From: Phycisphaerales bacterium
Lineage (GTDB): Bacteria > Planctomycetota > Phycisphaerae > Phycisphaerales > UBA1924
Assembly: GCA_013360675.1 (NCBI GenBank)
Contig: JABWBB010000008.1
Location: 54,792-118,791 of the forward strand
Direction: 5' to 3'
Length of the DNA stretch: 64,000 nucleotides
Both the position numbers and the translations under genes were made by a program. Of the stretch, positions 15,582 through 30,162 are shown in pieces. The notes below the pieces were generated by a model, which searched no databases, was not told where the DNA came from, and saw nothing but the letters and a program-made list of their open reading frames with translations. Each line of letters starts with the position of its first letter. Position 1 is the first letter of the stretch.

Positions 15582-16988
15582 ATGAAGATCTCGTTCTACG
15601 GGGCGGCGGGCGAAGTAACGGGGTCGTGTTACTACGTCGAAACGTCACGGGCCCGTGTGCTGGTCGACTTTGGTCTGCACCAGGGCACGCGAGAGCAGCG
15701 CCAGCGCAACCGCGTGCTGCCGCCGGTTCCGTTCGATCGCCTCGATGCCGTGGTGTTGACCCACGCCCATATCGATCACTCGGGGCGGCTGCCTCTGCTC
15801 AAGCGACAGGGCTACACGCGGCAGATCTACTGCACGCCCGCGACACGCGACCTGGTGGAATTGTTGCTGCGCGATTCAGCGGAACTTCAGCAGGCCGACG
15901 CCAAGCGCATGACCAAGCGCAACGAGCGCCGCGGCAAGCCCGCCGTCAGGCCTCTTTACAGCGTGGAGGACGCGATCGCGATCCTCGATCAGCTCTCGAC
16001 GCTCCGCTATGACACCCCCGCCGAAGTGGCCCCCGGTGTGAGCATCCGCTTTGTCGATGCGGGGCACATCCTCGGCTCGGCGTCGATCGAGATGACAGTT
16101 GTTGATGGAGGCGTGAAGCGGGTGATTGTCTTCTCGGGTGACATCGGGCAGAACGGCATGCCGCTGCTCCGCGATCCGACTCCGCTCGCCAAGGCCGATC
16201 TCGTCCTGATGGAATCGACGTATGGCGACCGCGACCATCGCCCCCTCGAGCAGACGATCGAAGAAGCCGCGGGGATCATGCGCGAGGCCGTGTGGAACAA
16301 GGAAAAAGTCCTGATCCCCTCCTTCGCGGTAGGGCGCAGCCAGTTGATCCTTTACTACCTGAACAAACTGGCGCGGTCGGGCAGGGTCCCCGAGTTCCCT
16401 GTCTTTCTCGACAGCCCCATGGCCATCGACGCGCTGAAACTCTACCGCAAGTATCTGCACGTGCTCGACGCCGAGACGCGCGAGCAGACCCGCAACGGCG
16501 AGTACCCGCTCGATGTGCCCAATCTCACCTGCACGGTGACGCCCGATGAATCGCGCAAGATCAACGACATGCATTGCTGCGCGGTGGTGATCGCGGGCTC
16601 GGGCATGTGCACGGGCGGCCGAATCATCCATCACCTCCGCCACAACATCTGGCGGCGCAATGTCACCGTGCTCATCGTGGGCTATCAGGCCCATGGCACG
16701 CTGGGGCGGCAGCTCGTTGAGGGGGCCAAGTTCGTCCGCATCTTCGGCGAACGCGTCATCGTCCGCGCCACCGTGCGCACGCTCGGCGGGCTTTCGGCGC
16801 ACGCGGGTCAGTCCGAACTCCTCGCCTGGGCGGGGAACTACGAGAAAAACGCTGCGGGTCAACGACCCCGCTTCGTGCTGACGCACGGTGAGCCCGGCGC
16901 ACGGGCCGCCCTCCAGGCCAAACTTAAGGCCACCCTCGCCATCGATGCCGAACTTCCCGAGTGGGGGGGCTCGATCACGCTCAACTAA
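15582..16988 (+). CDS. MBL-fold beta-CASP family hydrolase (RNase J/CPSF-like RNA-metabolising enzyme)
   Basis: MKISFYGAAGEVTGSCYYVE ... VLTHAHIDHSGRLP (HxHxDH). beta-CASP-like middle region and C-terminal LSAHAGQSELL motif. The track start at 15576 is a GTG two codons upstream. Confidence 0.85.
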   Translation: MKISFYGAAGEVTGSCYYVETSRARVLVDFGLHQGTREQRQRNRVLPPVPFDRLDAVVLTHAHIDHSGRLPLLKRQGYTRQIYCTPATRDLVELLLRDSAELQQADAKRMTKRNERRGKPAVRPLYSVEDAIAILDQLSTLRYDTPAEVAPGVSIRFVDAGHILGSASIEMTVVDGGVKRVIVFSGDIGQNGMPLLRDPTPLAKADLVLMESTYGDRDHRPLEQTIEEAAGIMREAVWNKEKVLIPSFAVGRSQLILYYLNKLARSGRVPEFPVFLDSPMAIDALKLYRKYLHVLDAETREQTRNGEYPLDVPNLTCTVTPDESRKINDMHCCAVVIAGSGMCTGGRIIHHLRHNIWRRNVTVLIVGYQAHGTLGRQLVEGAKFVRIFGERVIVRATVRTLGGLSAHAGQSELLAWAGNYEKNAAGQRPRFVLTHGEPGARAALQAKLKATLAIDAELPEWGGSITLN

Positions 16989-17041
16989 GCCCCAGGCAAC
17001 AGTCGAAGGCATCCTCGCTTCGTAATGGGTATCGTTCGACG

Positions 17042-18049
17042 ATGCTGATCCTTCGCATGCTCCTAGGGCTCTTGATGCTCTTCCAGTTCGCCTGCGCGTC
17101 ACGCGTGGGCGAACGCCTGCCCCGACGCGGCGACGAGATCGTCATCGCCGGCCAGTACTTCCACACCGGAACCCCCATCGTCCTCTGGACCGACCCGGGC
17201 GGCTACGACGCCTACCGCGTCGAACGCCGCTTCGCCCCCATCGACCAGGCCTCGTGGGAGGCCTCGAAAGAGAAAATCGCCACTCCGAACCGTTACGGCA
17301 CGCGGCGTGTGTCTCTCTCCCCCGAGGCCGCCGAACTCGTCCGTGGCGGGGGATGGGAACTCGATCTACTCCGTCAGCATGTCGATCAGTTCGTGATCCA
17401 CTACGACGTCTGCGGCACCAGCCGCACATGCTTCCAGGTTCTCCACGACCAACGCTGCCTTTCAGTGCATTTCATGCTCGACATCGATGGCACGATCTAC
17501 CAGACGCTCGACGTCAAGGAGCGGGCCTGGCACGCGGGCATCGCCAACGACCGTTCGGTCGGCATCGAGATCGCCAACATCGGGGCCTATCCCCCCGGCA
17601 AGCCATCACCTCTGGATTCCTGGTACGCCACCGATGCTGCTGGGCCTTATGTGACGCTCCCCTCGCGTCTGGGCGACGGGGGTGTGCGCACGAAGGGGTA
17701 CATCGCCAGGCCCGTGCGCCCACACCGCATCGCTGGCGCGATCCATGGCGTGACGTACGAGATGTACGACCTGACCCCGCAGCAGTACGAGAGCCTCGCC
17801 CGCCTTACCGCGACCCTCTGCCGCGTGCTGCCCAACCTTGCCTGTGATTACCCCCGCGACGCACAAGGCGATCTCGTCGCCCGCGCCATGACGCCCGATG
17901 AACTCGCCGCCCATCGCGGGCTGCTGGGGCACTTCCATATCACCAAAGGGAAGATCGATCCCGGCCCCGCTTTCGACTGGGACAAGGTCGTGCGCCGGGC
18001 ACGGGCACTGGGGGCGCCGCGCTCGATCAGCCCGCGGCTCGCGCCTTAG
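17042..18049 (+). CDS. N-acetylmuramoyl-L-alanine amidase (Amidase_2/PGRP-type), lipoprotein
   Basis: ATG 17042. Signal MLILRMLLGLLMLFQFAC. Motifs FVIHYDV, WHAGIANDRSVGIEIANIG, GHFHITKGKIDPGPAFDW. Confidence 0.8.
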   Translation: MLILRMLLGLLMLFQFACASRVGERLPRRGDEIVIAGQYFHTGTPIVLWTDPGGYDAYRVERRFAPIDQASWEASKEKIATPNRYGTRRVSLSPEAAELVRGGGWELDLLRQHVDQFVIHYDVCGTSRTCFQVLHDQRCLSVHFMLDIDGTIYQTLDVKERAWHAGIANDRSVGIEIANIGAYPPGKPSPLDSWYATDAAGPYVTLPSRLGDGGVRTKGYIARPVRPHRIAGAIHGVTYEMYDLTPQQYESLARLTATLCRVLPNLACDYPRDAQGDLVARAMTPDELAAHRGLLGHFHITKGKIDPGPAFDWDKVVRRARALGAPRSISPRLAP

Positions 18050-20256: not shown

Positions 20257-21180
20257 TCAGGCCTGGAGTGCGGAATCGAGCCGCCCGCGGGCTTTGTCCA
20301 GGCGGGCCTCCGCCTCGGGGCGGGCCAGGCCCAGCAGCCGCATGACCACCGCGACCTTGACGCTGCCCCCCGCCTCGTCGAGCAGCGCCAGGCACGCCTC
20401 GCGATCGAGCCCGGTCAGCGTCGCGATGATGCGTGCGGCGCGGTCGCGCAGCTTGGCGTTGGTGGCCCGCACATCGACCATCAGGTTCTGGTAGACCCGC
20501 CCCGAACGCACCATGAGCGTGGTCGAGATCGTGTTGAGCGCGAGTTTCGTCGCCGTCCCCGCTTTCATCCGCGTCGAGCCCGTCAGCACCTCGGGTCCGG
20601 TCTTGAGCACGAGCACGTGGTCCGCGTGTTCGACGACCCCCGGATCGGCGCAGGTCAGCAGGGCCGTGAGCGGGGCGTCCTCAGCGGTGCGTCCGTCGCG
20701 CCGGCAGTAGGCCAGCGCACCCAGCGCATACGGCGTCGTCCCGCCCGCGGCGATCGCGATGACGCTGTCGTTCGGGTTGAGGGCGAGTGATTCCAACTCA
20801 GTCCATGCACCGCGGGGGTCGTCCTCCAGTCCTTCGCTGCTCTTGCGCAGCGAGGCATCCCCACCTGCGATGAGCCCGATGATCCGGTCGGGCGGGACGC
20901 AGAACGTTGGCGGAGCCTCGCACGCGTCGAGCACGCCCAGCCGGCCGCTGGTCCCCGCGCCCACATAGATCAGCCTGCCGCCGGCGAGGAACCGCGGCTC
21001 GATCGCCTCGATTAGTCGCGTCAGGCGTGGCCTTGCGCGCTTGAGCGCCTGCACACTGTCGCGGTCTTCGCGATTGATCGTCTCGATGATCTCCCCGACC
21101 CCAAGGGTGTGAAGGTTCATCGTGCGTGGGTTGCGCTTCTCGGTGGAGACGTGTGAACGATCCGGCGGGGTCACATTCAT
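20257..21180 (-). CDS. murQ: N-acetylmuramic acid 6-phosphate etherase
   Basis: Start MNVTPPD at 21180. Motifs TEKRNPRTMNL, GGRLIYVGAGTSGRLGVLDA (SIS domain), GSTRMKAGTATKLALN. The track ORF is over-extended to 21567. Confidence 0.9.
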   Translation of the reverse strand: MNVTPPDRSHVSTEKRNPRTMNLHTLGVGEIIETINREDRDSVQALKRARPRLTRLIEAIEPRFLAGGRLIYVGAGTSGRLGVLDACEAPPTFCVPPDRIIGLIAGGDASLRKSSEGLEDDPRGAWTELESLALNPNDSVIAIAAGGTTPYALGALAYCRRDGRTAEDAPLTALLTCADPGVVEHADHVLVLKTGPEVLTGSTRMKAGTATKLALNTISTTLMVRSGRVYQNLMVDVRATNAKLRDRAARIIATLTGLDREACLALLDEAGGSVKVAVVMRLLGLARPEAEARLDKARGRLDSALQA

Positions 21181-21203
21181 GGGCGACAATAGCGGCCCTT
21201 CGC

Positions 21204-22310
21204 CTAGGCCGATCGCCCACGCGCCGGGTATACCCACGCCCCGCTCACGGGCGCAGGGCTCGAGCATCGCGTGACATGGGGCAGGGTGATGGGTACGCCA
21301 TCCTGGCAGAGCGCGCCGAGCACCGCGAAGCACGCCGCCTCGCGATACGCCGCGGGCACGCCGGCCTCGTCGGTCGTGCACACGCTTCGCCCCTGGGCCC
21401 TTTCGCTGATCGCCGCGATGAGGGCGCGATTCATCGTGCCCCCGCCCGCGAGCAGCACTTGGCGTGAATCCGAGGCAACCCCGCGGCGAACGATCACCTC
21501 GGCGATCGCCTCGCCCGCGCTGCGGAGCAGGTCCTCGCTCGCAGCATCCGCGTGCGCATCCACCCACGCGGCGAGTTCATCCCCCGTGCCCAGCGACCGC
21601 CCAGACTCTGCCTGTCGCTCGAGGAGGCGCTTTGCATCGTCGTAGACGCGTGGGACGATCGCGCCGTTCATGGCTGTCGCGCCGTCCGTGTCGTACCCAC
21701 ACCCGAGCCTTGCGCGGGCGATGGCATCGAGCAACTGGTTGCACGCGCACACGTCCCTCGCGTCGATGCGATCGATCGCCTCATCCCCGCCCGCGGGCAG
21801 GTTCGTGATGTTGCAGAACCCGCCGAGATTCACAACCGACACCGGCGAGGTTTCATCGCGGAAGAGCACCCAATCGGCCATTGGCGTGATGGGGGCCCCC
21901 TGCCCGTCCGCCGCCAGGTCCGCCTGACGCAGGTCATAGACCACCGGCACGCCCAGCGCGTGCGCGATCGGGGCGGGCTGCATCACCTGCCAACTCAGGG
22001 GCGGCTCGTGAAACACCGTCTGCCCGTGCACGCAGACAATGTCGCACGCTTCGCTGTCAAGCAACGCTTCAATCGCCCGCACGTGCAACAGTGCAAAGTC
22101 ATGCTGCGCTGAACACACCTCGCGAGCGGTCATCGCCTGCTGCTCGGCCAGGCGGCGCAGCGATGGCCCCACACTCCCCAGCGGCGTGCTGCGCCCACGC
22201 ACGAAGCGGGCCCTCATCGCCAGCCCACGCCCCTCGATCGTGACGAGGGCGACGTCGAGCCCGTCGAGGCTCGTGCCCGTCATGCAGCCGACGACCCGTC
22301 GCGTGCTCAC
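21204..22310 (-). CDS. anmK: Anhydro-N-acetylmuramic acid kinase
   Basis: GTG 22310 overlaps the GH20 stop (GTGA). N-terminus VVGCMTGTSLDGLDVALV matches the AnmK GxMSGTSxDGxD motif. Also has NLGGFCNIT. Confidence 0.85.
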   Translation of the reverse strand: MSTRRVVGCMTGTSLDGLDVALVTIEGRGLAMRARFVRGRSTPLGSVGPSLRRLAEQQAMTAREVCSAQHDFALLHVRAIEALLDSEACDIVCVHGQTVFHEPPLSWQVMQPAPIAHALGVPVVYDLRQADLAADGQGAPITPMADWVLFRDETSPVSVVNLGGFCNITNLPAGGDEAIDRIDARDVCACNQLLDAIARARLGCGYDTDGATAMNGAIVPRVYDDAKRLLERQAESGRSLGTGDELAAWVDAHADAASEDLLRSAGEAIAEVIVRRGVASDSRQVLLAGGGTMNRALIAAISERAQGRSVCTTDEAGVPAAYREAACFAVLGALCQDGVPITLPHVTRCSSPAPVSGAWVYPARGRSA

Positions 22311-24103
22311 GCAGTGGCCTCCCCGGGCTCGGGCCCGATCTTTCTGAAGAACGCGCAACTCTGCGCGAGCCCCCCAGAACGCGAGCGCTCGACCCACAGA
22401 CGCCGATGCTCGGCCTCGATCTCATGCCAGCTCCCCGGCGGTGAGCCTGTGCTCCAGCCGCGCCGACGCCCGAAGCGGTCCATGGCCAGACGCGTCATCG
22501 CCAGCGTGTGGCGCAGTTCGTCCATCAGCAATGGGCACGATGCCGCCGGCGCATTGCCCAGCGCCTCAAGGCGTGCGACGCACCCGTCATACACCTCGCG
22601 CGAGCCCACTTCGCGGGCTTCATCACAGCCCTTGAAGAGATCGGCGAAGATCGCGGTCTGGTTCCTGATGCGGCCCGTCTGCCCCGGCCTTGAGAGAGGC
22701 ATCGCGACACTGCGCAGCGGCTCATCCACGTCACCCAGAACATCGAGCCACGCCCCGATCTCGAGTGAAGGATCGTCGAAGGCATGCAGCGACACGGTGC
22801 CCGCGTCGGGCGTGTCACAACCGCACCACGCCGCGTGAAGCCCGTCGGCGATCCCACGCAGCGCCACGGGCCAGGTCTGCCAATGCCCGCTGTCACCCCA
22901 ATCGCAGACGAGCAGCCCCGCGGCACGCTGCGACAGCGCCGCCCGGGCCGCCCCTTCGATGTTGCCGCGGCGTTCGCTGGTTCGCCCGGTGATCGACCGC
23001 CACGAACTCGTCCCCGGGCAGAGCCAGAACCCGTGCATCCACGCCGGGCCGTGGCGCGTGAGGGCGCCGCACCAGTCGTCCCACGGAGCGTCGGGCTCAT
23101 ATCCCCAGGCCAAGGGAGTCATGTCGGCCTCGAGCATCGAGAGACAGTCCGGGTGCGACAGGGCGATGTCGGCCCAGAACATCGAACGCTTGCCCAGCCC
23201 CCGCGCGACCGCGGCGATCTGGCCCACAAACTCGGCGAAGACCGCGCCCCGGCCGCGCCGGCGTACCACGTCCGCCGAACGCCCATACGCAATGTCGTAG
23301 GTCTCATCGCAGCCGATATTGACGAGCGCACCGCTGAAGTGGGGGAGCAACTCGCCCAGCAATCGCTCGACAAAGCGCAGCGAGGCGGGATCGGTCGGGC
23401 AGAGCGAGAAAGGCCCACTGCGGGGCCAGACGTCAAACATCCAGTCGCCGTGGGTCTCGGCCAGGTGCGCAAAGGCGGGTTTCTCGAGCCATTCGCGCAG
23501 GTGCCCGAAGCAGTTCTGGTTCGCCGCCATATCGATGCCATGAGCCGCGCATGCCACGTCGATCTCTCGCACCTGTTCGGGCGTGAGCGGATCCCACCCG
23601 CCCCAGACCGATTCGGCCCCCTCGTAGGCAAACGTGTGCTCGGTGTAGAACTGCACGTGGTTGCACTTGAGGGCCGAGAGTTGCCCGATGATCCGATGAA
23701 ACTCGGTCATCGTCGGCACGCGGCAGCGTGAAACATCCAGCATCACGCCCCGCCGCCCGATCGCCGGGCGATCGTCGATCTCGCAGCACGGGGCTTGGCT
23801 TGGAAACTGACGCAGGATCTGCACGAGCGTCGCCCGCGCATGGCGTAAACCCGTGCTCGTGGGGGCGAGGCATTCGGCGATGAGGCATCCGGCATCGCCG
23901 GCGCGGATGGTCAGCCGATACGACTGGGCGTCTCGCTCATCCGCGCCGCACCAGGCGCCCGAGGTCTGCTCACGCAGCCACGCGGGTGCCGGCGACATCG
24001 TGAGTGCGCCGCTCATCCACGCGCTCGCGTCGGGCGGCACGTGCGCCACGCCCTCGAGCATGCGCACGTTCATGGGTGTCGGGATGAGTCTGAGTGAGTC
24101 CAT
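22307..24103 (-). CDS. Glycoside hydrolase family 20-like (beta-N-acetylhexosaminidase-like)
   Basis: ATG 24103 (MDSLRLIPTP); the track start at 24121 is TTG. Motifs GVMLDVSRCRVPT, NHVQFYTEHTF, and a catalytic-pair context NIGCDETYD. Confidence 0.75.
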   Translation of the reverse strand: MDSLRLIPTPMNVRMLEGVAHVPPDASAWMSGALTMSPAPAWLREQTSGAWCGADERDAQSYRLTIRAGDAGCLIAECLAPTSTGLRHARATLVQILRQFPSQAPCCEIDDRPAIGRRGVMLDVSRCRVPTMTEFHRIIGQLSALKCNHVQFYTEHTFAYEGAESVWGGWDPLTPEQVREIDVACAAHGIDMAANQNCFGHLREWLEKPAFAHLAETHGDWMFDVWPRSGPFSLCPTDPASLRFVERLLGELLPHFSGALVNIGCDETYDIAYGRSADVVRRRGRGAVFAEFVGQIAAVARGLGKRSMFWADIALSHPDCLSMLEADMTPLAWGYEPDAPWDDWCGALTRHGPAWMHGFWLCPGTSSWRSITGRTSERRGNIEGAARAALSQRAAGLLVCDWGDSGHWQTWPVALRGIADGLHAAWCGCDTPDAGTVSLHAFDDPSLEIGAWLDVLGDVDEPLRSVAMPLSRPGQTGRIRNQTAIFADLFKGCDEAREVGSREVYDGCVARLEALGNAPAASCPLLMDELRHTLAMTRLAMDRFGRRRGWSTGSPPGSWHEIEAEHRRLWVERSRSGGLAQSCAFFRKIGPEPGEATA

Positions 24104-24148
24104 GCGGCGTGCCCGGCCCAAACTCCATCCCGGGCGGGCCGGGGCATC

Positions 24149-25273
24149 CTACCGCGCGCAGGCCACCTCGACACCGGTCAGTTCCGCAGCCAGCGTTTCA
24201 ATTGCACGAGTCAGCACGCGGATCGCCCGCGCGTATTCGCGCAGCGAAATCCGCTCTTCGGGTGTGTGATCGAGCGCGCTGTCACCGGGCCCGTACGCCG
24301 AGATCGGGCACCCCCACACCGGCCCGACGACATTCATGTCCGACGTGCCCGTCTTGTGCTTGGGGTGGGGCGTGCCGCCCTCGCCCCGGATCGCGCCGGT
24401 GAGCGCCCGCGCCACCGGGTTGTTCCGGTCGCACACATGCGCTACTTCGGCTCCCGTGAACCCCAGCCGCACGTGTTCGCCCGCTTCCTCGCGGCAGATA
24501 ACCTCGATCCGCCGCGCCGTCACCCCCGGCGGTAATCGAAACCCGCCCAGAGCCGTGGCCCGCTCGTACAACCCGTCGCTTGACGTACCCATGCGGCGCA
24601 TCGTCGCCTGCACGCGCTCGAACGCACGCTCGGAGACGCGCTCTCGTTCGGCCCGGATGCGCACGCGATCCCACCAGCGGCAGAGATCATCGCCCACGCT
24701 CGTGCCCGGCCCCGCCGCGTGGGCCGACGCGCGACGCTCCTCATATTCAACCAGCAAGCGACCCTTGTAACCGAGCGTCACGCCGTCCCACCCGCTGGGC
24801 TCGCCGATGACGCACGCCGTGGGCGTGAACGACTTGATCGCCTGTAGCGCTCCGCGCGAGGTGGCGGCCTCTTCCTCGACGGCGCCGATCACGATCAGGC
24901 GCACGCCCGGGGGCACATTCGCCCGCGAGGCGGCGCACACAAACGTGGCCAGCGGGCCCTTCGCGTCGACGCTCCCCCGCCCGTGCAGCGTGTCCCCCTC
25001 GATCCGCACGGGGATATCGCCGGGCACCGTGTCCATGTGCCCCAGCAGCACGATGTCGATGCTCCGCCCCTTCTCGTCGGGCGAGCCGACGATGCCCACG
25101 GCGTTGCCCGCGGGGTCGATGTGGGCGTCCATGCCCCGCTCTCGCATCGCTCGCGAGAGATGCTCGGCCAGCGGGCGCTCGTGCCCGGTCAGGCTCGCGA
25201 TCGACACCATCTCAAAGAGCAGGCGAGCGTCGGGGTCGCTGGGTGCGCCTTCATTCACGGGATGCCGGTTCAT
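24149..25273 (-). CDS. lysK: [LysW]-lysine/ornithine hydrolase (M20 family, LysK/ArgE-like)
   Basis: M20 motifs LLGHMDTVPG and GRGSVDAKG. The start overlaps the lysZ stop (ATGA). Position in the lysWXYZK array supports the call. Confidence 0.8.
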   Translation of the reverse strand: MNRHPVNEGAPSDPDARLLFEMVSIASLTGHERPLAEHLSRAMRERGMDAHIDPAGNAVGIVGSPDEKGRSIDIVLLGHMDTVPGDIPVRIEGDTLHGRGSVDAKGPLATFVCAASRANVPPGVRLIVIGAVEEEAATSRGALQAIKSFTPTACVIGEPSGWDGVTLGYKGRLLVEYEERRASAHAAGPGTSVGDDLCRWWDRVRIRAERERVSERAFERVQATMRRMGTSSDGLYERATALGGFRLPPGVTARRIEVICREEAGEHVRLGFTGAEVAHVCDRNNPVARALTGAIRGEGGTPHPKHKTGTSDMNVVGPVWGCPISAYGPGDSALDHTPEERISLREYARAIRVLTRAIETLAAELTGVEVACAR

Positions 25274-26073
25274 TCAAATACCGTCCCTTCGCCGTTGAGT
25301 GCGCTGCTGATCGGCGTCGCGGTGCGCGCATCGCCGATGATGACACGCCCAACCCCCGCCTGCAACGCATCGCCCGCGCCCAGCACCTTCTTCTTCATGC
25401 GTCCCTGGGCGGCCTCCGCGGCGGCTTCGATCTCGTGCCGGGGCACGCGCCGGATCAGCGTCGATTCATCCGGGAACGCCCGGAGCAAGCCGCGCACGTT
25501 CGAGAGGAGCAGCAGCGTGTGCGCATGGAGCGCCGCGGCGGTCGCCGCCGCCGCCCGATCCGCGTCCACGTTGATCGGCTCGCCCTGCTCGCTGATGCCT
25601 GGGGGCGAGATCACCGGCGTGTACCCAGCCTCGAGCAGCATCTGCAGCAGGCTGGCGTTGACCCGCTCGACCGTGCCGGTGTAGTCGTCACGCACCACCA
25701 CCACGCGACCTGCCTCGACGCTGCGGATGGCCTCTTTCCGCTTCCCCTCCCACAGCCTGGCGTCGAGCCCCGACAGCCCGATCGCGTTCACGCCCGCACG
25801 CAAGAGACGCTCCACCAGAGACTGGTTCATGACGCCGCGGCAGGCCATCTGAAAGATCTCGAGTGTCTTTCGATCCGTCCGGCGGCTGGTGTGCCCCGAG
25901 GGGGAGGTAATGAACCGCGCCGGGTGTCCCAGTTGTTCGCTCAGCGTGTTGGTGGCGTGCGATCCCCCGTGCACGATGACGAGCTTCTGCCCGCCGTGGG
26001 TGAGCGTCCCCGCGTCCGTGGCGATCGCCTCGAGATCTACGCCCTCACTCCCGCCGACTTTCACGACAAGCAC
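25270..26073 (-). CDS. lysZ: [LysW]-aminoadipate/glutamate kinase (amino acid kinase family, LysZ/ArgB-like)
   Basis: GTG 26073 (VLVVKVGGSEGVD...) is preceded by GAGGGAG about 8 nt upstream and lies just after the lysY stop. The track ATG at 26136 would overlap lysY by 47 nt. Confidence 0.8.
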   Translation of the reverse strand: MLVVKVGGSEGVDLEAIATDAGTLTHGGQKLVIVHGGSHATNTLSEQLGHPARFITSPSGHTSRRTDRKTLEIFQMACRGVMNQSLVERLLRAGVNAIGLSGLDARLWEGKRKEAIRSVEAGRVVVVRDDYTGTVERVNASLLQMLLEAGYTPVISPPGISEQGEPINVDADRAAAATAAALHAHTLLLLSNVRGLLRAFPDESTLIRRVPRHEIEAAAEAAQGRMKKKVLGAGDALQAGVGRVIIGDARTATPISSALNGEGTVFE

Positions 26074-26089
26074 TCGAGTTCTCCCTCGT

Positions 26090-27118
26090 TCAATAGGGGT
26101 GCAGGCCGGCAAAGCCGAGGCCGGCCCGTTCCTCAAAGCCGCACATCAGGTTCATGCACTGCACCGCCGAGCCCGCCGCCCCCTTCATCAGGTTGTCGAT
26201 GGCGCTGATGACGACAATCCGCCCCGTGGCTTCATCGACCTCGAAGCCAACGTCGCACCAGTTAGTCCCGCCCAGGATCTTGGGCTCGGGGTAGCGGTGG
26301 ATGCCCGACTTGTCCTTGACGATCCGCACGAAGGGTTCGCCCCGATAAGCCTCGCGATAGAGCGACCAGACTTCCTTCTCGGTCATCGCCCGCGTGGGGA
26401 AGACATGCGCCGTGCACAGCACGCCCCGCACCAGTTCCACGCTCGTGACCGACATGTGCAGTTCAAACGCGCCCAGTTCCTGGGCCACCTCGGCCTGATG
26501 CCGGTGCCCCGCGGGGGCAAAGGTTCGCACGGTGCCGCTCTTCTCGGGGTGATGGCTCGTCGCGCTGGGCTCGGCCCCTGCCTCCGACGACCCCACCTTC
26601 AGGTCCGCGACCGCCGAGCGGATCAGCCCGGCCCGGGCCAGGGGCAACAGCGCAAGATTGACCGCCGTCGCGTTGCACCCCACACCGCTGGCCAGCCGGG
26701 CCCCGCGCAGGCGCTCGCGCTGCAGTTCGGGCAGGCCATAGACGAAGCGATCAAGCCAGGCGGAGGCGGCGTGATCCTCGGCGTACCAGCGTCGATACGC
26801 CGCCGCGTCACGCAGTCGAAAATCCGCCGACAGGTCCACCACACGTTCGGCCAGCCCCGCGTACTTCTCGATCGAGCGGCTCGCTTCGCCGTGCGGCAGG
26901 CACAAGAAAAGCACGTCGCACTTTTCTACCTGATCGGGCGACACGAACTGCAACTTGGTGCGCCCGCGCAGGTTCGGGTGCGACGTGTGCACGAACGCGC
27001 CGACCTGGCGGCGTGAGGTCACCTGCGCGACCTCGGCCAGCGGGTGATCCAGAAGCAGTCGGATCAACTCGCCGCCAGTGTACCCCGAAGCCCCGATGAT
27101 CGAACAACGCACGCTCAT
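26090..27118 (-). CDS. lysY: [LysW]-aminoadipyl/glutamyl-phosphate reductase (LysY/ArgC-like)
   Basis: MSVRCSIIGASGYTGGELIRLL. The active-site Cys lies in the context ASGVGCNATA. The start overlaps the lysX stop (ATGA). Confidence 0.85.
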   Translation of the reverse strand: MSVRCSIIGASGYTGGELIRLLLDHPLAEVAQVTSRRQVGAFVHTSHPNLRGRTKLQFVSPDQVEKCDVLFLCLPHGEASRSIEKYAGLAERVVDLSADFRLRDAAAYRRWYAEDHAASAWLDRFVYGLPELQRERLRGARLASGVGCNATAVNLALLPLARAGLIRSAVADLKVGSSEAGAEPSATSHHPEKSGTVRTFAPAGHRHQAEVAQELGAFELHMSVTSVELVRGVLCTAHVFPTRAMTEKEVWSLYREAYRGEPFVRIVKDKSGIHRYPEPKILGGTNWCDVGFEVDEATGRIVVISAIDNLMKGAAGSAVQCMNLMCGFEERAGLGFAGLHPY

Positions 27119-27996
27119 GCCCGCACTCCTTCAGGCGTGCGGACCCAGCCCCGGCGTGCCAGCCCCAGCGTCCACTCGACAATCCGCCCGGGGATGTCTA
27201 CCCCTGTGGGCTCGATGCTGTTGCGAAACTCCATCGTGTGGTTCACCTCGCCCACGGTCAGCCCGTCGCGCGGGTGCTCGAGCAGGTCGACCGCAACGAT
27301 ACCCCCGCCCACCGCGTGCGCCGCCCGCACCGAGATCGCGCCCACCTCACCGCTCACATCGATGGGCGTGGCCCTGCCACCCCGCGCGGTGTTGGTGATC
27401 CAGTGCTCGCTCTCGCGGGCGATGCCGCAGATCGCCTCGTCCCCCGCGACAAAGACGCGAAGATCACGCCCGGGCTTGTTGACATGTTCCTGCACGTAGA
27501 AGACCGAGTGCTGCACGCTCCCGAGCGTCGCCTTGTGCTCGACAATCGCCTCGGCGGCGTCGCGGTCATTCACCCGGGAAAGCAGCCGCCCCCACGAGCC
27601 CACCGTCGGCTTGAGGACCGCCGGATAGCCATTGGCCTCGATCGCGGCGATGGCCGAGTTCTCGCTCACCGCGACGCGTGTCCGGGGCGTGGGCACACCC
27701 GCCCGCACCAGCGCCACGCTCGTGGCCAGCTTGTCGCCGCAGGTATCGATGACGCGCGAGGGATTCACCACCGGCATGCCCCAGCCCTCGAAGACTCGGA
27801 CGACCGCGAGGGCCGCCGAGTGGCTGACGCAGCGATCGATCGCCGCGTCGAACCGCTGCCAGGGGGATGGGTCGTGCAGATCGAGCACGATCTCACGCAC
27901 GTCGACGAACTCGTGCTCGATCCCCCGTGCCGCCAGCGACTCGCCCAGCAGCCTCTCTTCGACCCGAATCCTCGAATGCAGTATCGCAATCCGCAT
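27115..27996 (-). CDS. lysX: LysW--alpha-aminoadipate/glutamate ligase (RimK-type ATP-grasp, LysX)
   Basis: Near-collinear by-eye match to Thermus LysX: MRIAILHSRIRVEERLL, CGDKLATSVAL, GYPAVLKPTVGSWGRLLSRV, HWITNTARGG, VAVDLLE, EVNHTMEFRNS. Confidence 0.9.
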   Translation of the reverse strand: MRIAILHSRIRVEERLLGESLAARGIEHEFVDVREIVLDLHDPSPWQRFDAAIDRCVSHSAALAVVRVFEGWGMPVVNPSRVIDTCGDKLATSVALVRAGVPTPRTRVAVSENSAIAAIEANGYPAVLKPTVGSWGRLLSRVNDRDAAEAIVEHKATLGSVQHSVFYVQEHVNKPGRDLRVFVAGDEAICGIARESEHWITNTARGGRATPIDVSGEVGAISVRAAHAVGGGIVAVDLLEHPRDGLTVGEVNHTMEFRNSIEPTGVDIPGRIVEWTLGLARRGWVRTPEGVRA

Positions 27997-28062
27997 GACC
28001 GACTCCTGTTCCCCTCGTGAATCAACCGTGACAAGCGCGACAAATACCTTTCCGCGGCCGAC

Positions 28063-28251
28063 TCACTCGCCCCAGTCTTCCTCGACCTCGGGGGCCAGGA
28101 CCACGCTCAGCGGCTGCGTGCTGGTGACTTCGAGTTCCACCGCACATTCGGCGCACCGCACCACCTCGCCATTGAGCGGGGCGCGGGCAAACTCCACCCG
28201 CCCGCCGCACTCGGGGCATTCACACGCGATCGTGTACGTTCCGGTATCCAT
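28063..28251 (-). CDS. lysW: Amino-group carrier protein LysW
   Basis: ATG 28251 with AAGGAG upstream. 62 aa with a zinc ribbon (CPECGG ... CAECA) and the diagnostic acidic C-terminus EVEEDWGE. Confidence 0.9.
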   Translation of the reverse strand: MDTGTYTIACECPECGGRVEFARAPLNGEVVRCAECAVELEVTSTQPLSVVLAPEVEEDWGE

Positions 28252-28308
28252 CGCAGTCTCCTTTCGTTTCTCAACCTTCGAGCCCGGGGTCACACGCCCC
28301 GGAAGAGT

Positions 28309-28351
28309 TCAAAAGCACAACGGGCCCACCGACCACTGGTCCGGCGAGCCC
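28309..28351 (-). terminator. Candidate attenuator terminator upstream of lysW
   Basis: In minus sense, GGGCUCGCCGGACCAGUGGUCGGUGGGCCC (about 11 pairs including G-U, hand-folded) is followed by GUUGUGCUUUUG. It lies between the leader ORF and lysW. Confidence 0.4.
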
Positions 28352-28393
28352 GATCCGATCCTTGGCGCTTCCGCGCCCAGTTCGTGTTCGGTG

Positions 28394-28513
28394 TCACCGG
28401 CCCGGGGGGGCTTTCGCTTTCCCTTTGGCTTTGGCTTTGAGGCCGCACGACACGACACCGCACGCGGCGAATTCGCCGTTCATGCCCGCCAGGTTGGCCG
28501 TCGTGGTGCTCAT
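28394..28513 (-). CDS. Candidate Lys-rich leader peptide (39 aa) of the lysW operon
   Basis: Sequence MSTTTANLAGMNGEFAACGVVSCGLKAKAKGKAKAPPGR. An SD-like GAAGAGG lies 5-6 nt upstream. Third-codon positions are mostly G/C except five AAA Lys codons. Not in the ORF track (<60 aa). Confidence 0.4.
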   Translation of the reverse strand: MSTTTANLAGMNGEFAACGVVSCGLKAKAKGKAKAPPGR

Positions 28514-28566
28514 CGTGCCTCTTCATCCCAATCGGCGGATCAACTCCGCCAACTCCAGCCGAATCG

Positions 28567-30162
28567 TTAGGCCCCATGCGACACCGGGTCAACTTTCCGG
28601 CCTTGTCCCGCCAGGCACACCAGTGTTGCCACGCACGTCCCGATGACCAGTTGCCACGGGAAGGCCATTTTGAACTCGGGCAGTGACACCATCCCCGCCA
28701 GCCCCGTGCGAAGCAATACCCAGACCGCCGGCTGCATCACCAGGACGACGCCAAACCCCGCGATCAACGCCGCCACGGCGCTGGTCTCATTCCCGAACCG
28801 GGTGAACAGCGCCGTCAGAAAGACCCCCAGCAGCCCGGCATAGGCGAACGACATCACCCCCAGGGCGAACTCCACGAGCGTGTTGTTCTCCGGGTCGTAC
28901 CAGAGGATGCACAGGCTGGCAAAGCCGCCCAGCACCACCCCGGCGCCCACCACACCACCCCGGGCCACGCGCAGGTAGTGTCCCTCGGCGTGCCCAGGCC
29001 GCCACCCCCGGTACAGGTCTGTCACAAATGTGGACGACATCGCGTTGAGCGTCGAGTTCACCGTCGACAGCCCCGCCGCGAAGAGCCCCGTCATGACCAG
29101 TCCGCCCAGCCCCGGAGGCAGGTGGTGCATCACGAAACTCACGAACAAACCCATGCGGCTGGGCGCTTCGACGCTCCGCCCCGTCAGGTCCGGGCGCTGG
29201 TAAAACACCCACAGCAAAAGCCCGATCGCCAGGAAGACCGCCACCGTCGGCACCCCAGCCAACACTCCGCCGATCACCGATCGCGCCCCCTCCTTCGCGC
29301 TGCGGCAGGTCAGCATCCGCTGCACCAGGTCCTGGTCCGTCCCGTGCGAGGCCACGATCAACAGCATCAACCCCGTCACGCTCGTCAGCAGTGTGAAGCT
29401 CTTGCTCGCGTCAAACCCATACAGCGGCTTGCCAGGATCGATTCCAACATCGATCAACGTCAACTTGCTCGCGAGGCCCGCCCCGGGCTCGCGCCACGCC
29501 GCGATGATCGAACTCCAATCGGAGGGCATCAGCCACACGAGATACACCAGCACGCCGCCCGCCGCCCCGACATAGACGGTGGCCTGCAGCACGTCGGACC
29601 AGATCACGCTGCGGATCCCGCCCGCCAGTGTGTAGCCGATCCCGATGGTCGTCATGACGACCACGCCGCCCACCAGGTGCAGGGGCTCCACATCGCCGAA
29701 GAGAATCAACGATGCCGGCACCGATCCGATGAACACCCGCGCCCCGCCCGCGAAGACGCGTCCGATCAGGTACGTCACGCTCGCGGCATGCTTGGCCCGC
29801 ACCCCGAACCGCCGTTCGAGCAGTTGGTAGGGCGTCGAGCACTCGTGCCGATAGAACGCCGGAATAAAGACCCAAGCGAGCACCACCGCCGCCAGTATGC
29901 CGCCGATGGTCCCCGAGAGGTACGTCAGGTTGCCGTAATACGATGACTCGGGCACGCCGACAAAGGTTGCAGCAGATTGGGCCGTGGCGAGCACCGAGAT
30001 GGCCACCGCCCACGACGGCATCGATCGCTTCGCCAGGAAGTAATCGCCCGTGTCGTGCTGCTTGCGCCGATTGATGAACAACCCCGAAACCAGCAGCATC
30101 AGCCCGTACGCCCCGAGCACGCCCCAGTCGATCCATCCCAGGGCACCTAGCGTGAGCGGCAT
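28567..30162 (-). CDS. Sodium:solute symporter family (SSF) transporter
   Basis: 531-aa polytopic protein with about 13 hydrophobic segments and an SSF-like N-terminal region (YFLAKRSMPSWAVAISVLATAQSAATFVGVPE). Confidence 0.85.
   Translation of the reverse strand: MPLTLGALGWIDWGVLGAYGLMLLVSGLFINRRKQHDTGDYFLAKRSMPSWAVAISVLATAQSAATFVGVPESSYYGNLTYLSGTIGGILAAVVLAWVFIPAFYRHECSTPYQLLERRFGVRAKHAASVTYLIGRVFAGGARVFIGSVPASLILFGDVEPLHLVGGVVVMTTIGIGYTLAGGIRSVIWSDVLQATVYVGAAGGVLVYLVWLMPSDWSSIIAAWREPGAGLASKLTLIDVGIDPGKPLYGFDASKSFTLLTSVTGLMLLIVASHGTDQDLVQRMLTCRSAKEGARSVIGGVLAGVPTVAVFLAIGLLLWVFYQRPDLTGRSVEAPSRMGLFVSFVMHHLPPGLGGLVMTGLFAAGLSTVNSTLNAMSSTFVTDLYRGWRPGHAEGHYLRVARGGVVGAGVVLGGFASLCILWYDPENNTLVEFALGVMSFAYAGLLGVFLTALFTRFGNETSAVAALIAGFGVVLVMQPAVWVLLRTGLAGMVSLPEFKMAFPWQLVIGTCVATLVCLAGQGRKVDPVSHGA

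Follow-up and report, generated by a model that had tools for sequence, protein, structure and literature searches.

In Thermus thermophilus, a leader-peptide attenuator of the lysine (alpha-aminoadipate/LysW) gene cluster is said to have been proven experimentally by Tsubouchi et al. It reportedly stands upstream of the homocitrate synthase gene, where a longer cluster begins, and its peptide, with adjacent Lys codons, is much shorter than those described here. The enterobacterial leaders trpL, hisL, leuL, thrL, ilvL and pheL couple the translation of a leader rich in cognate codons to a choice between antiterminator and terminator. Two further classes of leader work without a leader peptide as sensor: the L-box (RF00168), which acts in cis from the leader of lysine biosynthesis genes and stops transcription early at high lysine, has a conserved five-helix aptamer that binds lysine directly with no need for translation, and the T-box (RF00230) senses the charging state of a specific tRNA, binding the uncharged tRNA via a specifier codon and the T-box and operating a terminator/antiterminator switch.

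Here we analysed a 64-kb window of Phycisphaerales DNA, that is, the whole stretch under study. On its minus strand, a leader region lies between a sodium:solute symporter gene and a lysW-lysX-lysY-lysZ-lysK operon, and it contains, in order, a 39-codon open reading frame (ORF), an antiterminator 5′ arm (anti-arm) holding the stop codon of that ORF, a small hairpin and a terminator. We conclude that this element is probably a lysine-sensing, ribosome-mediated transcription attenuator of lysWXYZK. The kind of element, classical ribosome-mediated attenuation, is already known; it is uncatalogued for Phycisphaerales.

The likeness to Thermus consists of a short Lys-codon ORF before LysW-pathway genes, followed by alternative terminator and antiterminator hairpins, with lysine as the presumed signal. 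Compared with the Thermus leader as reported, the present leader stands directly before lysW and in a different phylum; with its relatives, it encodes peptides of 24–61 aa in which 3–6 Lys codons, nearly all of them the rare AAA, have one or two codons between them, and it is predicted from sequence. In contrast to the enterobacterial attenuators, lysine would be the amino acid sensed, and three segments (anti-arm with stop codon, shared segment and terminator 3′ arm) are present with no obvious 1:2 protector hairpin, so that termination is not clearly the default of the untranslated RNA. Many relatives also appear to lack a Shine-Dalgarno (SD) sequence, with a -10-like box 5–10 nt before the ATG.

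Neither the L-box nor the T-box was matched by covariance-model scans of the window leader and 51 related loci, as the preliminary description had expected for the lysine riboswitch; in place of an aptamer or a bound tRNA, the sensor here would be a translating ribosome. An Rfam scan of positions 27800..29000 gave no match even at E up to 10, and at gathering score the 51 related loci returned tRNAs only and no leader family. No such leader family was found in Rfam 15 or NCBIfam, and a search of the literature turned up no paper that describes Lys leaders in either Planctomycetota or Chloroflexota.

The lysW operon and its leader ORF

The first gene under the proposed control, lysW (28063..28251, minus strand, like all features below), encodes an amino-group carrier protein and matched NCBIfam TIGR01206 with E = 2.3e-14, its score of 53.0 bits being marginally below the 53.2 cut-off. 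Its ATG lies at 28251, behind an AAGGAG SD sequence (28263..28258). The remaining operon genes (24149..27996) matched NCBIfam equivalogs above cut-off: lysX (27996..27115, LysX, 335 bits), lysY/argC (27118..26090, ArgC-type reductase, 377 bits), lysZ (26136..25270, [LysW]-aminoadipate kinase, 399 bits) and lysK (25273..24149, [LysW]-lysine hydrolase, 411 bits). By these family matches the downstream genes are assigned to a LysW-type lysine pathway. After lysK comes a GH20 glycosidase gene unrelated to that pathway, and the scan of window ORFs turned up no further genes of the lysine pathway. A sigma-70 promoter scan of 27900..28900, including the interval between symporter and leader ORF, gave no site. 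The 64-kb window contains no tRNA genes; in four relatives a tRNA gene adjoins the leader, and it is tRNA-Gly(GCC), not tRNA-Lys.

The leader ORF (28394..28513) has 39 codons and a stop, encodes MSTTTANLAGMNGEFAACGVVSCGLKAKAKGKAKAPPGR and finishes 142 nt short of lysW. Upstream of it is an SD-like GAAGAGG (28518..28524) whose predicted duplex with the anti-SD has an energy of -5.8 kcal/mol; the motif was correctly recognized in the preliminary description, but its end lies 4 nt 5′ of the ATG rather than the 5–6 nt given there. The ORF, the hairpins and the SD of lysW all lay where that description had placed them. Third codon positions are G/C-rich in the leader ORF (GC3 0.82) and poorer in an overlapping 100-aa ORF (0.62), in agreement with the earlier reading of the two frames.

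All five Lys codons of the leader (codons 26, 28, 30, 32 and 34; 28412..28438) are AAA, fall within the final 14 codons and have one codon between neighbours, and the peptide ends in Pro-Pro-Gly-Arg-stop. The long ORFs of the window use AAA 98 times and AAG 353 times, which turns an uncounted impression of AAG dominance nearby into a measured one and puts the chance of five AAA in five at about 5e-4. The leader is also the sole instance, on both strands of the window, of at least four clustered in-frame AAA codons; no second copy of its signature, which could have hinted at a regulon, was found elsewhere in the window. The peptide matched no Pfam or NCBIfam family.

Conservation of the leader in Phycisphaerales

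We compared a set of 23 leaders comprising the window and 22 related loci, with counts of 23/23 loci referring to Phycisphaerales reference loci that have enough sequence upstream of lysW. The small ORF, its Lys run, the position of its stop and a terminator before lysW were kept in 23/23 loci, and a short ORF in the 5′ leader of the amino-acid operon was present in the window and in 23/23 related loci. Among the loci that carry the element is L023, from a Tepidisphaera metagenome-assembled genome. The same design was found in 15 metagenome loci; the metagenome scan yielded few relatives nearer than those already collected, and these loci therefore serve as a replication set and not as a deep alignment. 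One Phycisphaerae-like metagenome locus (L087) has AAG in place of AAA. Both the ORF and its Lys run, whose conservation in relatives the preliminary description had proposed to check, were kept in reference and metagenome loci alike.

Codons for the presumed end product are clustered across the set as in the window, Lys being the most enriched residue in the final 20 codons (6.0 times background, 23 leaders). The choice of synonym is reversed relative to the neighbouring genes: the leaders contain 99 AAA and 4 AAG codons, against 7 AAA and 107 AAG in lysX of the same loci (P = 1.7e-47, Fisher exact test). The 260-nt zone before lysW makes up 1.6% of the sequence searched for in-frame AAA clusters in the 23 reference loci, yet it holds 23 of the 39 clusters found; for clusters of at least four AAA codons the figure is 17 of 20.

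Many bacteria control lysine genes by RNA elements that act independently of translation, and a conserved terminator with an alternative pairing would suit the expression platform of a riboswitch. The leader might on that account control the terminator as RNA alone, either as a riboswitch not yet described or by binding a protein, with the ORF and its AAA codons incidental or forming an A-rich RNA motif. We consider this very unlikely. Of the AAA triplets, 102 fall in the ORF frame of the 23 leaders and only 13 and 6 in the other two. The AAA frame always has a start, and in 23/23 leaders it stops 28–58 nt before the terminator, whereas the other frames do so in 9/23 and 8/23. The stop codon furthermore lies inside the anti-arm, neither sequence nor length is conserved 5′ of the Lys cluster, the expected site of an aptamer, and Rfam offers no match.

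Attenuation also accounts for what is kept of the peptide and what is not. N-terminal halves are unrelated even in the close pairs L007/L009 and L020/L022; what persists is the frame, the Lys cluster and the C-terminal RNA segment. It is highly improbable that the ORF encodes a functional Lys-rich micro-protein accompanied by a partial terminator or stabilizer hairpin, or that the hairpin is the terminator of the symporter gene. The gene-like GC3 of 0.82 and a C-terminal peptide segment that is conserved inside subgroups would fit a micro-protein, and the window hairpin does lie downstream of a co-oriented gene. Yet the peptides vary from 24 to 61 aa and match no protein family, their Lys codons are nearly all the rare synonym, opposite to neighbouring genes, and the portion of the C terminus that is conserved falls on the RNA anti-arm. 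As for the symporter, the terminator lies 215 nt beyond its stop codon.

The identity and orientation of the upstream gene vary among relatives, which assigns the element to lysW. The symporter is upstream in none of them and the upstream gene is divergent in several, and the terminator is always kept; we therefore rejected the hairpin as a symporter terminator.

Most orthologous leaders have no SD sequence and carry instead a -10-like TAnnnT 5–10 nt before the ATG. Translation in these relatives would thus need leaderless or otherwise atypical initiation.

Alternative pairings and the position of the ribosome

A terminator scan predicted an intrinsic terminator at 28311..28352, between the leader ORF and lysW. 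Its stem-loop, CGGGCUCGCCGG-ACCAGUGGU-CGGUGGGCCCG, spans 28352..28321 (-26 kcal/mol, z -3.2) and can extend to 28357..28316; the U-tract that follows, UUGUGCUUUU, is interrupted. A GC-rich hairpin with a U-rich tract lies between ORF and lysW in 23/23 leaders, although the U-tract is weak in L013 and L005 and the assignment is doubtful in L015. In alignment A1, 88% of cells at terminator positions were paired, compared with 25–51% in slid controls, and two pairs were compensatory. Between the terminator and the SD of lysW lies a second hairpin (CCGGGG-CGUGUGA-CCCCGG, 28284..28302; -12.8 kcal/mol, z -1.5), with analogues in L001 and L003.

The 5′ half of the terminator has a second potential partner. 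The segment 28338..28357 can serve as the 5′ arm of the terminator, paired with 28333..28316, or as the 3′ arm of an antiterminator, paired with the anti-arm GGGCCGGUGACACCGAACACGA at 28403..28382 (-24.9 kcal/mol, RNAduplex); as it pairs with one of the two at a time, antiterminator and terminator are mutually exclusive. The core of the anti-arm, GGCCGGUGA, spans the final two sense codons and the UGA stop (28396..28394). At the tip of the antiterminator sits the small hairpin GGCGC-GGAA-GCGCC (28364..28377; -11.7 kcal/mol, z -3.3), and hairpins of other sequence occupy the equal position in relatives (CCGAGC..GCUCGG in L001, CUGAGC..GCUCAG in L003, CUGAAC..GUUCAG in L013). The antiterminator is present in the minimum free energy (MFE) fold of the naked window leader.

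Taken by itself, the window anti-arm has a complementarity that does not significantly exceed that of GC-matched shuffles (z -1.07, P = 0.15); the case rests on the whole, phylogenetically related leader set. Across the 23 leaders, complementarity between the anti-arm and the terminator 5′ arm had a mean z of -1.8 relative to shuffles. The register of the anti-arm shifts by 1–5 nt between lineages in MAFFT alignments, which makes column-wise covariation of the antiterminator infeasible; the shuffles and a permutation of cognate and non-cognate partners stand in for it. Cognate duplex energies summed to -363 kcal/mol, compared with -310 ± 10 kcal/mol for permuted partners, and 0 of 20,000 permutations reached the cognate value, in line with co-variation of the two partners. 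In 20/23 leaders a ribosome on the stop codon would have the anti-arm within its footprint.

We computed the effect of ribosome position by constrained folding, and the values that follow are thermodynamic modelling only. The naked window RNA was ambivalent, with a terminator probability of 0.39. With a ribosome on Lys26 or Lys28 the probability fell to 0.02 and 0.07, and with a ribosome on Pro-Pro-Gly or on the stop codon it rose to 0.91 and 0.94. On the late codons Lys32 and Lys34 the terminator was predicted to be favoured, so only stalls at early codons would relieve termination. Across the set, a ribosome on the stop codon let the terminator form at a probability of at least 0.64 in 22/23 leaders, and a ribosome on a Lys codon abolished it in 17/23; in these 17 a switch that depends on ribosome position is predicted, and the remaining 6/23 showed no switch in MFE modelling. 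Both of the folds that the preliminary description had said should be sought are thus available to the RNA, and in the folding model the choice between them follows the ribosome. Its reading of the region as a leader-peptide attenuator draws support from codon bias, conservation, complementarity and folding together.

In the mechanism that we propose, a ribosome would translate the 39-codon ORF as RNA polymerase transcribes the leader. At low lysine, the supply of charged tRNA-Lys that reads AAA would become limiting, and the ribosome would stall on the first AAA codons (28438..28424). The segment 28403..28382 would then stay free to pair with 28357..28338, with the small hairpin (28377..28364) as a cap. 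Because the resulting antiterminator would take the 5′ half of the terminator, polymerase would continue into lysW. When lysine is plentiful, the ribosome would reach Pro-Pro-Gly-Arg-stop and cover the anti-arm, the terminator at 28352..28321 would form with its U-tract, and the transcript would end about 60 nt before lysW.

The same architecture could in principle respond to another signal or act in another way, through the supply or modification of tRNA-Lys(UUU), translation capacity or the access of Rho; we regard this as unlikely. The near-exclusive use of the rare codon AAA does point to one isoacceptor rather than to lysine in general, and the terminal Pro-Pro-Gly could make the outcome dependent on EF-P. 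However, the genes under control make lysine, Lys is the sole strongly enriched residue, and leaders in Anaerolineae use mostly AAG, so that the amino acid and not the codon is common across lineages. The imperfect U-tract would suit a Rho-dependent variant, but the canonical GC-rich stem and U-run are conserved, and Rho is then not needed.

Leaders in Chloroflexota and a possible wider family

Analogous Lys leaders, often in tandem, were found in Anaerolineae, where some loci carry Arg-rich leaders. The Anaerolineae leaders use mostly AAG. A rule that the leader uses the minor codon of the genome holds in about 8–9 of the 12 Chloroflexota loci, with L030 and L036 as clear exceptions and L032 near parity. 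The NCBIfam classes of LysX, LysZ and LysJ were no guide to whether an operon had an Arg-rich or a Lys-rich leader.

We tentatively raise the possibility, which we think somewhat less probable than its opposite, that the window represents one member of a large uncatalogued family of leader-peptide attenuators on LysW-type operons, spread over the phyla Planctomycetota (Phycisphaerae) and Chloroflexota (Anaerolineae) at the least, with three shared properties. The sensor codon would systematically be the minor synonym of the genome: AAA in Phycisphaerae, whose GC content is high, AAG in most of the low-GC Anaerolineae, and CGU where the leader is Arg-rich. If this is true, minor codons would make the switch responsive to a single scarce isoacceptor, in keeping with the prediction of selective-charging theory. 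Many of the leaders would be translated from leaderless transcripts. Finally, the clustered codons (Lys, Arg or both) would report the role of the operon in making lysine, arginine/ornithine or both, a distinction beyond the reach of protein family models; the Arg-rich variants hint at a way to separate Lys-type from Arg-type LysW operons.

The reversal of codon use between leaders and lysX (99/4 versus 7/107) is ready-made material for the idea that the isoacceptor read by attenuators is the one most sensitive to starvation. The design, conserved over more than 35 loci, could become the starting point of an RNA or leader family used in annotating genomes. For the operon in the window, the Lys leader supports lysine, and not ornithine or arginine, as the product, independently of protein homology. 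We know of no lysine regulator in Phycisphaerae, and the leader offers a concrete, testable mechanism of lysine regulation for this poorly studied class of planctomycetes.

Elements of the lysW leader and its operon

All of the elements that the preliminary description had listed upstream of lysW were recovered where it had placed them. The leader ORF (28513..28394, minus strand) encodes MSTTTANLAGMNGEFAACGVVSCGLKAKAKGKAKAPPGR followed by a stop codon, and its third positions are indeed mostly G/C (GC3 0.82 versus 0.62 in the overlapping 100-aa ORF). The Shine–Dalgarno (SD)-like GAAGAGG is present, with a spacing to the ATG of 4 nt rather than the 5–6 nt first given. Counting bore out the impression that AAG dominates in the surrounding genes (AAA 98, AAG 353 in the window's long ORFs), a usage that makes five AAA codons out of five improbable (P ~5e-4). 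On both strands of the 64 kb, the leader holds the sole in-frame cluster of at least four AAA. A terminator scan assigned to the GC-rich hairpin a 12-bp stem (28352..28321, minus strand) followed by TTGTGCTTTT; the extended terminator fold had −26 kcal/mol (z −3.2), and the small hairpin GGCGC-GGAA-GCGCC had −11.7 kcal/mol (z −3.3).

lysW (28251..28063, minus strand, as for the whole operon; 53.0 bits against an NCBIfam cut-off of 53.2) is followed by lysX (27996..27115), lysY/argC (27118..26090), lysZ (26136..25270; [LysW]-aminoadipate kinase, 399 bits) and lysK (25273..24149; [LysW]-lysine hydrolase, 411 bits). The latter four of these five genes pass NCBIfam equivalog cut-offs for the LysW-dependent alpha-aminoadipate lysine pathway. 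We placed the operon's end at lysK because the next genes are that for a GH20 glycosidase, then anmK and murQ. The aminotransferase gene lysJ is absent from the window operon; in Chloroflexota loci L019 and L077 it comes after lysZ. LysX homologues put the window in the Phycisphaerales (Planctomycetota), the top match being 76% identical.

Cell-wall recycling genes surround the operon (GH20 glycosidase, AnmK, MurQ etherase and AmpD-like amidase, with an SSS symporter; 20257-24121 and 28567-30162, minus strand, and 16961-18049, plus strand), and the sodium:solute symporter gene, ending at 28567 (minus strand), directly precedes the leader region. A GGCGGA-GUUGA-UCCGCC hairpin without a U-tract (28534-28550, minus strand; −14.6 kcal/mol, z −5.5), 17 nt past the symporter stop and just 5' of the leader SD, may mark the end of the symporter transcript or stabilise it.

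As had been expected, no lysine riboswitch was found: for 27800..29000, a permissive Rfam search gave just three chance-level matches to unrelated eukaryotic and viral families, and in 51 related loci tRNAs were the only matches at the gathering threshold. The window leader thus belongs to no catalogued leader class, L-box and T-box included. The leader peptide had no match in NCBIfam or Pfam, Rfam 15 and NCBIfam hold no model for such Lys leaders, and a literature search found no report of them for Planctomycetota or Chloroflexota.

Conservation upstream of lysW

We sampled 80 LysX loci from species-representative genomes. The ORF and its Lys run were conserved in 23/23 Phycisphaerales-type loci with enough upstream sequence (L011 and L028 were left out, their upstream sequence being incomplete). 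In all 23, the ORF stops 100–170 nt 5' of lysW and carries 3–6 clustered Lys codons near the C-terminus of a peptide of 24 to 61 aa. Within 376 kb of strand sequence, 23 of the 39 clusters of at least three in-frame AAA fell within 260 nt 5' of lysW, a zone that makes up 1.6% of the searched space and holds 17 of the 20 clusters of at least four. Of the AAA triplets 5' of the terminators, 102 were in the ORF frame, against 13 and 6 in the remaining frames, and the AAA frame had a stop 28–58 nt 5' of the terminator stem in 23/23 leaders (other frames, 9/23 and 8/23). Lys was the top enriched residue in the final 20 leader codons (6.0x background), with 99 AAA and 4 AAG in the leaders versus 7 AAA and 107 AAG in lysX of the same loci (Fisher p = 1.7e-47).

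Leader N-termini were unrelated even in near-identical loci (L007/L009; L020/L022), while the frame, Lys cluster and C-terminal segment were retained, as expected if translation matters and the peptide itself does not. We give very little credence to a functional micro-protein, or to the hairpin being the symporter's terminator. The symporter lies upstream in none of the relatives, and the upstream gene's identity and orientation differ, so the leader element belongs to lysW; a terminator of the upstream gene was ruled out on these grounds.

In the four closest reference relatives, tRNA-Gly(GCC) lies directly 5' of the leader ORF, ending 10–41 nt before the ATG (L001 3404-3475; L002 1223-1294; L003 3413-3484; L006 3188-3259), a position taken in the window by the symporter gene; in these relatives, leader and tRNA may share a transcript from which tRNA processing frees the leader. 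Most orthologous leader ORFs have no SD, and a −10-like hexamer (TAnnnT; TATAAT or TAGAAT in Chloroflexota) ends 5–10 nt 5' of the ATG (L004, L005, L007-L010, L012, L014, L017, L020-L023, L025, L037 and L040; further such starts in L041, L043, L060, L064 and L077). The missing SD and the nearby hexamer suggest leaderless or near-leaderless mRNAs and translation. In the window, the leader does have an SD, and no promoter was recognised.

An independent metagenome set yielded 15 further Phycisphaerae-like loci with the same design, 14 using AAA and the exception, L087, using AAG. The L087 leader (..MKKSVKAKKAKPPTRAR) lies ~155 nt 5' of lysW in a high-GC locus (0.66), with AAG for 6/6 Lys codons. 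Apparent failures in this set were accounted for by incomplete contigs, a non-ATG start (L085, like L013) or a lysW inside a longer operon. In L102, L106 and L132, lysW directly follows genes like those for homoaconitase small subunit or homoisocitrate dehydrogenase, the longer cluster arrangement of Thermus, and any leader must lie further upstream, beyond the examined DNA.

Alternative folds and ribosome position

Between the ORF and lysW, 23/23 leaders have a GC-rich hairpin and, directly after it, a U-rich tract; the U-tract is weak in L013 and L005, and the terminator assignment is doubtful in L015. An alignment of ten sequences had 88% pairing in the terminator helix (slid controls, 25–51%) and two compensatory positions there. 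The mutually exclusive folds that had been anticipated were predicted for the window: the anti-arm, a segment over the last codons and stop codon (GGGCCGGUGACACCGAACACGA; 28403..28382, minus strand), is complementary to the terminator 5' arm and pairs with 28357..28338 (−24.9 kcal/mol) in an antiterminator tipped by the small hairpin. Against dinucleotide shuffles, anti-arm complementarity had a mean z of −1.8 over the 23 leaders (13 below −1.64); the window's own z was only −1.07 (p = 0.15), so the pairing argument rests on the whole leader family. Because the anti-arm changes register between lineages, co-evolution was assessed in 17 non-redundant leaders by permuting which terminator arm each upstream segment was paired with. 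The cognate pairs summed to −363 kcal/mol versus a permuted mean of −310 ± 10, and 0/20,000 permutations reached the cognate sum. Lineage-specific changes in the terminator arm were mirrored in the anti-arm (GCCAGG with CUUGGU in L006; CAGGCC with GGCCUG in L013).

Such paired arms could also belong to an RNA-only switch, which we consider highly unlikely; the anti-arm lies inside the footprint of a stop-codon ribosome in 20/23 leaders. We modelled the transcript up to and including the terminator stem at equilibrium, without kinetics, with a 28-nt single-stranded constraint as the ribosome and the mean probability of terminator pairs as readout. For the window leader, modelled terminator probability was 0.02 with the ribosome at Lys26, 0.07 at Lys28, 0.39 at Lys30, 0.90 at Lys32, 0.60 at Lys34, 0.91 at Pro-Pro-Gly and 0.94 at the stop codon, and 0.39 with no ribosome. 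In the family as a whole, modelled terminator probability was at least 0.64 in 22/23 leaders with a stop-codon ribosome, and a ribosome on a Lys codon abolished the terminator in 17/23.

The observation is real, and its reading as a Lys leader-peptide attenuator is supported by the lack of an Rfam match, the conserved leader and the alternative ribosome-dependent folds. The best explanation, and in our judgement a likely one, is classical ribosome-mediated attenuation sensing lysine, in a three-segment form; we infer that the ORF is translated, that ribosomes stall at AAA, that transcription terminates at the hairpin and that lysine is the signal. When lysine is low, the ribosome would stall at the early AAA codons and leave the anti-arm free, the antiterminator would form and polymerase would continue into lysW. 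With sufficient lysine, the ribosome would get to the ORF end and cover the anti-arm, the terminator would form and transcription would end ~60 nt 5' of lysW.

Several leader peptides have Pro-Pro(-Gly/Pro) soon after the Lys cluster (window codons at 28400-28408, minus strand): APPGR before the stop in the window, and SPPPR (also before the stop), GPPAW, GPPGP, KPPTRAR and KPPPV elsewhere (L001, L002, L083, L087, L019, L024). Such motifs pause ribosomes when EF-P is absent. A pause there would keep the anti-arm covered by the ribosome; the CCC/CCG codons may instead be there just for RNA pairing. A second GC-rich hairpin, CCGGGG-CGUGUGA-CCCCGG, lacks a U-tract (28284-28302, minus strand; −12.8 kcal/mol) and has counterparts in the closest relatives (L001 3688-3711; L003 3712-3734), between terminator U-tract and lysW SD; its role might be to make read-through transcripts more stable or to modulate translation of lysW.

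Codon choice and leaders in Chloroflexota

In 12 Anaerolineae LysW operons, short ORFs with a KKxKK-type motif are each followed by a canonical intrinsic terminator. Two tandem units precede lysW or lysX by ~100–450 nt in nine loci (L016, L018, L024, L029, L030, L033, L035, L036 and L063), and single units occur in L019, L032 and L058; the tandem form recurs in metagenome loci. In first units, the terminator arm GCCAGAC has its complement in the post-stop sequence (..CCGGUAG, then UCUGG). Other Chloroflexota leaders are rich in Arg or Arg and Lys (for example PRSRRPLPTS, SPRSRRFPKRL and LKRARRSPK; L041, L043, L046, L056, L064, L068, L075 and L077, also L138 and L140) and lie 25–50 nt before a terminator, just 5' of lysW. 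Their conserved CGY-UCC-CGU-CGY runs vary at wobble positions only, and CGU is used in these leaders against a preference for CGC in lysX. LysX, LysZ and LysJ get identical NCBIfam names in Arg-type and Lys-type operons; the Arg-type operons may be LysW systems serving arginine/ornithine, or both amino acids.

AAA is decoded only by tRNA-Lys(UUU) and AAG also by tRNA-Lys(CUU), so a leader in an AAG-dominated high-GC genome probably queries the minor isoacceptor. The choice of AAA fits the selective-charging argument reportedly made by Elf and colleagues in 2003. Anaerolineae leaders mostly prefer AAG, while the surrounding genes of the low-GC loci prefer AAA; L029 has both preferences reversed, L030 and L036 are exceptions and L032 is near parity. 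The minor-codon rule describes a strong tendency with exceptions. An improbable variant is that this device responds to the state of tRNA-Lys(UUU) or to translation in general, or works via Rho.

Lysine-sensing attenuation as proposed for the window leader has the same mechanism as the trp, his, leu, thr, ilv and pheA attenuators. In 2005, Tsubouchi and colleagues reportedly gave experimental proof of lysine-specific attenuation in the lysine cluster of Thermus thermophilus. The mechanism is textbook; the leader family is uncatalogued and widespread, with an unusually clear rare-codon signature.
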